The position numbers and the translations under genes were made by a program. This document shows positions 59,456-61,927 of a stretch of DNA of 64,000 nt, piece after piece. How positions within the stretch are numbered: position 1 is the stretch's first letter; each line of letters begins with the position of its first letter. The stretch spans positions 112,211,899 to 112,275,898 of the forward strand of contig NC_092380.1 of the NCBI RefSeq assembly GCF_030028105.1. Direction: 5' to 3'. Below the pieces are notes generated by a model. That model made no database searches and was not told where the DNA came from. It saw only the letters and a list, made by a program, of their open reading frames with translations. This DNA is from Mobula birostris (Eukaryota).

Positions 59456-61927
59456 CAGTTGAAGTCAGAAGTTTACATACACTTTAAGCCAAATACATTT
59501 AAACTCAGTTTTTCACAATTCCTGACATTTAATCCTAGAAAACATTCCCTGTCTTATGTCAGTTAGGATCACTACTTTATTTTAAGAATGTGAAATGTCA
59601 GAATAATAGTAGAGAGAATGATTTATTTCAGCTTTTATTTCTTTCATCACTTTCCCAGTGGGTCAGAAGTTTACATACACTTTGTTAGTATTTGGTAACA
59701 TTGTCTTTAAATTGTTTAACTTGGGTCAAACGTTTTGGGTAGCCTTCCACAAGCTTCTCACTGTAAGTTGCTGGAATTTTGTTCCATTCCTCCAGACAGA
59801 ACTGGTGAAACTGAGTCAGGTTTGTACGCCTCCTTGCTCGCACACGTTTTTTCAGTCCTGCCCACAAATTTTCTCTCAGACTGAGGTCAGGGCTTTGTGA
59901 TGGCCACTCCATACCTTGACTTTGCTGTCCTTAAGCAATTTTGCTACAACTTTGGAGGTATGCTTGGGGTCACTGTCCATTTGGAAGACCCATTTGCGAC
60001 CGAGCTTAACTTCCTGGTTGATGTCTTGAGATGTTGCTTCAATATATCCACATAATTTTCCTTCCTCATGATGCCATCTATTTTGCGAAGTGCACCAGTC
60101 CCTCCTGCAGCAAAGCACCCCCACGACATGATGCTGCCACCCCCATGCTTCACGGTTGGGATGGTGTTCTTCAGCTTGCAAGCCTCACCCTTTTTCTTTT
60201 CTTTCTTTTCCAATCTTTTTATTAGTTTCATAATAATAAACATACCATAATATTGATACGAAGTTATCGGGAATACATTGTTATAGTTAACATAGTTAAA
60301 TATAAGCCCAATTGACACGAGTGTTAAATCTCCCAATCATACAGGATACAGATGTGATGAACAAAAAAAATCTAAAACAAAAATCATGAAAAAGGAAAAA
60401 AAAATAAAAATATACCCCCCCAAAAAAACTAACCTAAACAGTGTTAATCAACTAAACTAAGAAAAAGACATAGGGTGTTATGTAACATCAAAAAAAAAGG
60501 AACCATTAGTGTCATTGACTCCATTCCTCTCAACATATATTAAAAAGAAATGGAATAAGTTTGGAAAAGGTCAAATCACATCATATGAAAATGTTGAATA
60601 AATGGCCTTCAAGTCTTTTCGAATTTAATAGAGGGATCATAAATAACACTTCTAATTTTTTCCAAGTTTAAACACAACGTAGTTTGAGAGAACCAATGAA
60701 ATGTGGTGGGAAGATTAATCTCTTTCAGGTTCAGCAAAATGGATCTTCCAGCCATTAATATAAGAAATGCAATCATCCGACGAGCTGAAGAGGTTAATTG
60801 ACTTGGTTCTATCATTGGTAACCCAAAAATTGCAGTAATAAGGCGAGGTTGTAAATCAATATTCAAAACAGTTGAGATAGTATCAAAAATATCTTCCCAA
60901 TATTTTTCAAAAAAGAACATGACCAAAACATATGAGTTAAAGAAGCTATCTCAGTGTGATATCTATCACATATAGGATTTATATGAGAATAATAACAAGC
61001 TAGTTTAGTTTAACGAGCTAGTTCACTTTTTCCTCCAAACATAACAATGGTCATTATGGCCAAACAGTTCAATTTTTGTTTCATCAGACCAGAAAACATT
61101 TCTCCAGAATGTAAGATCTTTATCCCCATATGCACTTGCAAACTGTGGTCTGGTTTTTTCTATGGTGGTTTTGGAGCAGTGGCTTCTTCCTTGCTGAGCA
61201 GCCTTTCTCAGGTTATGTCGATATAGGACTTGTTTTACTGTAGATATAGATACTTGTCTACCTGTTTCCTCCAGCATCTTCACAAGGTCCTTTGCTGTTG
61301 TTCTGGGATTGATTTGCACTTTTCGCACCAAAGTACGTTCATCTCTAGGAGACAGAATGCATCCTCTTCCTGAGCGGTATGATGGCTGCGTGGTCCCATG
61401 GTGTTTATACTTGCGTACTATTGTTTGTACAGATGAACGTGGTACCTTCAGGCGTTTGGAAATTGCTCCCAAGGATGAACCAGACCTGACATCATTTTCT
61501 GACCTCAATCCGATAGAAAATTTGTGGGCAGAACTGAAAAAGCGTGTGCCAGCAAGGAGGCGTACAAACCTGACTCAGTTACACCAGTTCTGTCTGGAGG
61601 AATGGAACAAAATTCCAGCAACTTATGGTGAGAAGCTTGTGGAAGGCTACCCAAAACGTTTGACTCAAGTTAAACAATTTAAAGGCAATGCTACCAAATA
61701 CTAACAAAGTGTATGTAAACTTCTGACCCACTGGGAAAGTGATGAAAGAAATAAAAGCTGAAATAAATCATTCTCTCTACTATTATTCTGACATTTCACA
61801 TTCTTAAAATAGTGATCCTAACTGACCTAAGACAGGGAATGTTTTCTAGGATTAAATGTCAGGAATTGTGAAAAACTGAGTTTAAATGTACTTGGCTAAG
61901 GTGTATGTAAACTTCTGACTTCAACTG
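59456..61927 (-). mobile_element. Sleeping Beauty/Tss1-family Tc1 transposon, rearranged (two right IR/DR ends), with L1 insertion
   Basis: TA-CAGTTGAAGTCAGAAGTTTACATACAC...GTGTATGTAAACTTCTGACTTCAACTG-TA; inner and outer DRs in each arm; transposase [62 protein letters not shown] and WPSQSPDL. Confidence 0.95.
60191..61022 (-). mobile_element. L1-clade LINE 3' fragment inserted in the SB transposase gene
   Basis: ORF2 C-terminal Cys/His remnant (PICDRYHTEIASLTHMFWSC..KYWEDIF), AATAAA and an A-rich tail at about 60191-60222; splits the transposase exactly at WRKK|GEACK. Confidence 0.85.

Follow-up and report, generated by a model that had tools for sequence, protein, structure and literature searches.

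Sleeping Beauty (SB) and the salmonid element Tss1 are DD34E transposons of the Tc1 group with IR/DR ends, and the length of SB is given as 1638 nt (PMC6362248). Function is reported to differ between the two end types of SB. Among symmetric SB transposons, those with two left IRDRs are described as functional and those with two right IRDRs as non-functional (PMC3060107, citing Izsvak 2002), which backs, through a secondary source, the remark in a preliminary description of the present locus that vectors with two right IRs transpose poorly. The engineered symmetric left/left vector pT3 works, and works better (PMC8151067). The half-DR acts as an enhancer and is not essential (PMC7827188). For pT2, a ca. 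3-fold gain resulted from four alterations of the right ITR together with TATA flanks (PMC6362248). The laboratory ITRs derive from one Tanichthys copy (PMC8151067, PMC6362248), and we infer that the 2002 test of two right ends used the unimproved right end.

Replacement of one transposon end by the other is already known in mariner elements. In Rpmar49 and Rpmar17 of Rhodnius prolixus, the 5′ part is replaced by the 3′ part, and the 13 copies of Rpmar49 were amplified from one progenitor (Filee 2015, PMC4678618). Seven rearranged Drosophila mariner MITE sublineages, including Dromar7ere and Dromar11eug, have been described (Wallau 2014, PMC4161770). No MITE-like derivatives were found for the IR/DR element Tdr1, according to the accessible text of PMC5224488. 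The main text of the 2022 survey of Jia et al. (PMC9777934) places 107 ray-finned fishes and one mollusc, and no cartilaginous fish, in the SB group, and its Table 1 gives SB TIRs of up to 415 bp. Six motifs gave no match in the readable part of its supplement, whose species table could list a long-TIR or ray entry. The available portions of PMC12361510 and bioRxiv 10.64898/2026.10.27.761883 give Tc1/mariner or DNA-transposon contents for rays but mention no right/right structure, and a natural right/right SB element is likewise absent from those of PMC2198921, PMC4877112, PMC11707139, PMC3878927, and bioRxiv 659086. No report of end replacement in SB was found in the literature searched, outside which lie Repbase, Dfam, and most subscription papers. 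What is surprising here is the right/right form in SB, where it has been described as non-functional.

The window analyzed here, that is, the whole stretch of 64,000 nt from Mobula birostris (stingray/devil-ray clade), contains at positions 59456–61927 an SB-type element whose transposase frame runs on the minus strand, starting at 61486. The element lies in an intron of FAR1, at a TA inside a host repeat. Its features are as follows; L001 is a complete canonical relative introduced below.

59424–59453, plus strand: 5′ part of the interrupted host repeat, 93% identical to the intact copy at 58131 (family D14)
59454–59455, no strand: left TA target-site duplication
59456–59890, minus strand: native right arm with transposase codons ~273–340, the stop codon, and the right IR/DR
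~59456–59683, minus strand: right IR/DR of the native arm, DR cores 198 nt apart, without a half-DR-like site
59891–60189, minus strand: middle of the transposase pseudogene, codons ~173–273, 4.3% from L001
60190–61025, minus strand: later insert of 836 nt with a T-rich tail on the plus strand and a 7-nt duplication
61026–61486, minus strand: transposase codons 20 to ~172, 5.5% from L001
61487–61501, minus strand: 15-nt relic of the 5′ UTR (canonical positions 261–275), the diagnostic joint of the proposed subfamily
61499–61927, plus strand: duplicated inverted right arm (canonical 1206–1639) in place of the left IR/DR, with a 5-nt deletion and without a half-DR-like site
61928–61929, no strand: right TA target-site duplication
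61930–61978, plus strand: 3′ part of the interrupted host repeat, 89% identical to the copy at 58166 (family D3)
62743–62931, minus strand: first coding exon of the host gene FAR1, given as context; the element lies downstream of this exon on the gene's strand

BLASTN of the element against the window gave the arm pair 59456–59890/61927–61499 as a single inverted match of 435 columns with 95.2% identity, in agreement with the reverse-complementary arms of ~430 bp reported in the preliminary description; no second copy of the element was found elsewhere in the 64-kb window. The arms differ by 15 substitutions, one 1-nt indel, and one 5-nt indel. Translation yielded in each arm the last ~67 codons of an SB-type transposase, the stop codon, and then the IR/DR, as had been described. 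The TA dinucleotides at both ends and the resumption of the host repeat behind them were also reproduced, and the uninterrupted repeat was seen at position 58131 of the window and in 223 contigs of run X20 and 231 contigs of run X19. Within a FAR1 pre-mRNA, the two arms might form a 430-bp duplex, which would be a possible substrate for editing or small-RNA production. Elsewhere in the window, a 406-codon stop-to-stop frame at 48754–49974 (plus strand) resembles a remnant of a Tigger/pogo-type transposase.

To identify the type of each arm, relatives were retrieved from metagenome contigs, where three of 259 candidates (L001, L002, and L003) were obtained; the same scan gave none among 190 candidates in genomes and 10 in viral contigs. 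L001 and L002 are complete 1639-bp elements flanked by TA on both sides and differ by 0.7%. L001 carries an open frame of 340 codons that matches the SB chains 5CR4, 5UNK, and 2M8E nearly residue for residue. A second inverted pair of 65 nt (95% identity) at 44–108 and 1546–1610 of L001 ends beside the left end of its SB element, which suggests an adjacent Tc1-like element. When both window arms were aligned to the left and right ends of L001 and L002, the right-end scores were 703–735 and the left-end scores 104–109, and neither arm was closer to the left end. The arms are 93–95% identical to the canonical right end and, by BLASTN, ~70% identical to the left IR/DR, and no left IR/DR was detected anywhere in the window. 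A scan with the DR core located a half-DR-like site at position 154 of the L001 left end and none in the L001 right end or in either window arm. The DR cores of the arms are 198 and 192 nt apart, compared with 197 nt in L001. Since both arms score as right-type and lack a half-DR-like site, the element has a right/right structure.

The element is 93–96% identical at the DNA level to 1639-bp canonical copies and shares with SB/Tss1 the right IR/DR, the DR spacing, the terminal CAG, the TA duplication, and residues D153, D244, and E279. Judged by its transposase sequence, its IR/DR ends of ~230 bp (outer plus inner DR), and its TA duplication, it belongs to the SB/Tss1 family by descent. In contrast to SB/Tss1, it has no left IR/DR, half-DR-like site, or ATG, and its 434-nt inverted arms include coding sequence. 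It is not a canonical autonomous SB element, which would have a distinct left IR/DR, half-DR, 5′ UTR, ATG, and intact ORF. The MITE class does not fit an element of 1636 bp (its length minus the 836-nt insert) with most of the ORF present, and the Foldback/Galileo type, with internally repetitive long TIRs and P-superfamily membership, differs from arms made of SB coding sequence and IR/DR.

In the orientation of the element, the joint consists of inverted canonical 1639–1206, a shared CAG, UTR positions 261–275, a shared CA, and canonical 447 onward. There are thus two breakpoints, each at 2–3 nt of microhomology. The left IR/DR and the N-terminal codons are missing, as stated in the preliminary description. 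The promoter region, the ATG, codons 1–19, and the start of codon 20 are gone. On the other hand, the 5′ UTR, also said to be absent, has left 15 nt (61487–61501). This relic is exact in all three loci (L001, L002, and L003), and the probability of a chance match of the 12 relic nucleotides beyond the arm is ~2e-4. Folding of the joint region was no better than that of shuffled sequences (z = +1.15), so no local hairpin accounts for the breakpoints. As a post hoc observation, the arm gain of 171 nt and the deletion of 171 nt cancel, and the rebuilt layout has the canonical length of 1639 bp (window 61487–61927 against L001 1613–2058).

Exactly this length might result from an in-register overwrite, by which a normal element inserted at FAR1 would have lost its left end in place and never moved. 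We consider such an event extremely improbable, because the same two breakpoints were found at TTC33 of Mobula hypostoma and in a contig of organism G, a recurrence not expected by chance, provided that these records are free of artefacts. The TTC33 copy was found by a search with the arm peptide, where it was the closest by identity (90%) among the 120 matches listed of 240. It is XP_062905703.1 (TTC33 isoform X3), from a chromosome-scale assembly (199-Mb contig); this automatic gene model covers the joint and one arm only. Its residues 80–168 align without gaps with the plus-strand frame of the window across the antisense N-terminus, the UTR relic, and the arm. An element copy serves as the last exon of the model (residues ~140–235) and adds, by predicted splicing, ~95 residues, the SB C-terminal helices among them. 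In organism G, record 1 of X15 (742 nt) covers 61026–61529 and 59950–60189; it extends 31 nt past the joint and is free of the 836-nt insert. The end replacement by the inverted other end, with the same breakpoint at the FAR1 and TTC33 loci, parallels Rpmar49.

Chimeric reads are known to arise from inverted repeats, and for this reason an assembly or library fold-back artefact might have been suspected; we give it next to no credence, since the arms differ at 15 sites plus 2 indels and the joint is present in three independent data sets. No sign was seen of the misassembly against which the preliminary description had cautioned, and the junction is not single-copy, as it occurs at TTC33, in the organism G contig, and at high depth in organism H. 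Of the two origins proposed there, movement as a right/right unit and overwriting in place, the same three findings favor the first. Because the joint is common to another locus, it predates the FAR1 insertion, and because both ends are right-type up to the final base and abut TA, the FAR1 copy arrived as a right/right unit. Two right ends with their own TA duplication were seen end to end in the FAR1 copy only.

The abundance of the joint was estimated from summed contig depth in organism H, a close ray represented by one sample (X19 and X20), whose flank contigs are ~1–2% from the window. The depth at 61499 was 54,054 in X20 and 57,553 in X19, against 14–16 in the unique flank; the joint depth is thus ~3,700–4,100 times the single-copy depth, a figure that may be inflated by left/right copies in which the 171-nt deletion is the only change, as they would align to 61501, although they would not account for the doubled depth of the arm. 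The joint depth was also 3.2-fold the internal median (24 sites). Because summed contig depth is no copy number (simulated depth per copy was 0.05–21 units, depending on filters), only a rough figure can be given, about 170 copies as a floor with thousands allowed. In X24 (organism I, rich in canonical copies), the depth at 61499 was 19.4 with a median of ~700,000 at 24 internal sites, and 218 contigs leave the alignment at 61499 into canonical sequence. Four of 24 listed runs were compared, and the joint was examined in organisms G, H, and I only.

An alternative is that few copies carry the joint, that most of the depth comes from left/right elements with only the 171-nt deletion, and that right/right elements moved rarely. 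Such deletion copies would align over 61487–61501, where the trim margin at alignment ends is unstated, and the laboratory data describe right/right as a poor substrate. Nevertheless, the arm-to-internal depth ratio was 3.2 (X20) and 3.5 (X19) in the ray sample compared with 1.16 in the control X24, and the three independent sightings (window, X15 contig, and TTC33 model) all run into the arm. A peptide query spanning the joint recovered the joint in one of 71 matches, the TTC33 model, which is also the sole joint-bearing protein among 412 fetched. Most other matches continue with the canonical N-terminus, and in none of the other 70, which need not come from rays, does the N-terminal piece lead straight into the UTR relic. 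Therefore, this alternative seems unlikely.

The exact joint pattern gave no match in metagenomes (39 nt) or in prokaryote genomes and viral contigs (23 nt), as is expected for ray DNA and hence uninformative, and BLASTN of a plasmid collection gave no match. The SB family appears widespread because nine organism labels and a skin metagenome share at least about one-fifth of the words of the element, although shares of ~0.2, as in organisms A–F, are no evidence. No ray-named protein was among the best 120 of 7446 matches to full-length SB, and neither an intact left end nor an intact transposase was retrieved from a ray. A left/right helper is nonetheless presumed, because the element cannot encode a full transposase.

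The transposase remnant retains the DD34E residues D153, D244, and E279. Pfam assigned HTH_SB with 52.6 bits (cut-off 43), and the N- and C-terminal parts matched SB chains in the PDB. The segment 61026–61486 covers the rest of PAI, RED, and the start of the catalytic domain including D153, with insertions of 2 nt and 1 nt; 59891–60189 retains D244 and has two 1-nt deletions. No intact ORF of 340 codons is left, owing to the loss of codons 1–19, four indels, and the insert. This 836-nt LINE-like insert at 60190–61025, an addition to the earlier account, splits the frame near codon 172 and is bordered by a 7-nt duplication (60190–60196 and 61026–61032). The insert-free joint of 60189 to 61026 was present in all four runs compared, and therefore the insert came later. 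Pfam named no domain in the insert. It is likely a 5′-truncated LINE, presumably LINE-1 to judge from its motifs.

Compared with the majority sequence of organism H (>80% of depth), this copy differs at 14 sites in 61094–61389 among the best 40 of 296 rows. These sites amount to ~3% of the N-terminal segment, indicating that this copy is old and inactive. Private substitutions number 11 in the native arm and 3 in the duplicated arm (p = 0.057). Relative to SB-type copies, 17 changes are common to both arms; they cluster in the last 50 codons and mostly change amino acids. Both arms (59685–59890 and 61499–61704) carry R at codon 294 as well as an altered codon 316, whereas P and C are retained at these codons in the M. 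hypostoma copy that bears the joint. The pattern is suggestive of gene conversion between the arms at some time after the founder formed. A mosaic arm derived from another SB lineage was considered as a possibility; in the arm alignment, some residues are common to non-salmonid relatives.

Over 63 aa, the FAR1 exon shows 100% identity with its counterparts in Mobula birostris and Hypanus sabinus, 97–98% with those of other rays, 89% with that of a catshark, and 73–81% with those of bony fishes. The element differs from L001 by 4.3–7.1% depending on the segment and at 9 of 125 fourfold sites; among named sequences, those closest to L001 come from salmonids. Since the element is only 4.3–7.1% from L001 while FAR1 is 73–81% identical to that of bony fishes, horizontal transfer, either out of bony fishes or in parallel with them, is the probable route by which the SB-type element reached rays.

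Taken together, we consider it very probable that the element is a decayed copy of a non-autonomous right/right SB subfamily of rays, likely copied in trans to hundreds or thousands of sites. An SB-type element would have entered rays horizontally, from or alongside bony fishes. The founder would then have arisen by microhomology-guided template switching or gap repair, in which the first 263 nt gave way to 434 nt of right-end sequence and canonical 276–446 (promoter region, ATG, and codons 1–19) was skipped. A strand could have invaded the right end from the shared outer DR, switching template twice, or a deletion could have occurred between two neighboring inverted copies, the origin suggested for Rpmar49; both routes are compatible with the data. 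The founder would have retained four DR binding sites but neither the half-DR enhancer nor the capacity for full transposase, and its amplification by cut-and-paste would have relied on transposase from normal left/right relatives acting in trans. The FAR1 copy would have landed in the TA of the host repeat, decayed by ~3%, and taken the LINE-like insert.

Alternatively, the joint might have been carried by larger composites whose movement depended on a genuine left end lying outside it, or by duplicated host DNA, a view for which there is some room because flanks were seen at the FAR1 copy only. At FAR1, however, nothing separates either right end from the TA duplication and the interrupted repeat, the window has no left IR/DR, and the unique flank is at single-copy depth, so that we regard composite spread as very improbable.

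With amplification of the right/right unit itself as the preferred reading, the ray element resembles Rpmar49 and Rpmar17 in its long inverted arms with transposase homology and its non-autonomy (PMC4678618), whereas those elements have single short TIRs and lengths of ~0.9–1.0 kb, and the ray element is a full-length IR/DR transposon with apparently far more copies. Unlike in the mariner Rpmar lineages, its two end types are reported to be functionally unequal. The Drosophila sublineages also share the overwriting of one end by the other, long TIRs, and amplification in trans, but they are short mariner elements in which the 3′ end is always replaced by the 5′ end, the opposite direction (PMC4161770). 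Compared with the engineered symmetric SB vectors, in which left/left is the working form (PMC8151067), the natural ray family took the opposite form. As to why right/right works, the answer we favor is that the half-DR may do no more than increase efficiency and the natural right end may be a better substrate than the first-generation laboratory end. A further reading, which we regard as tentative and rather doubtful, is that right/right is the dominant SB form in stingrays and devil rays, having out-copied its left/right parent with an arm that is efficient without the left-end enhancer. The features that would be credited are a change at position 12 of the outer DR, three changes beside the inner DR, and the perfect symmetry of 434 bp.

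SB is a clinical gene-transfer tool, and its model assumes unequal ends with synapsis starting at the left end. A natural amplified right/right family, although dead or non-coding, would be a counter-example to the rule that two right ends are non-functional, with many sequenced copies, and the contribution of the left end would become testable with natural sequence. The presence of the SB family proper (93–96% DNA identity) in cartilaginous fishes, which the main text of the 2022 survey does not list, is evidence of crossing, and one copy gives the host gene TTC33 a predicted alternative last exon. If right/right is indeed the dominant form, the requirement for a left end would be a property of the laboratory's first right end, and the ray arm would be a natural symmetric vector end.
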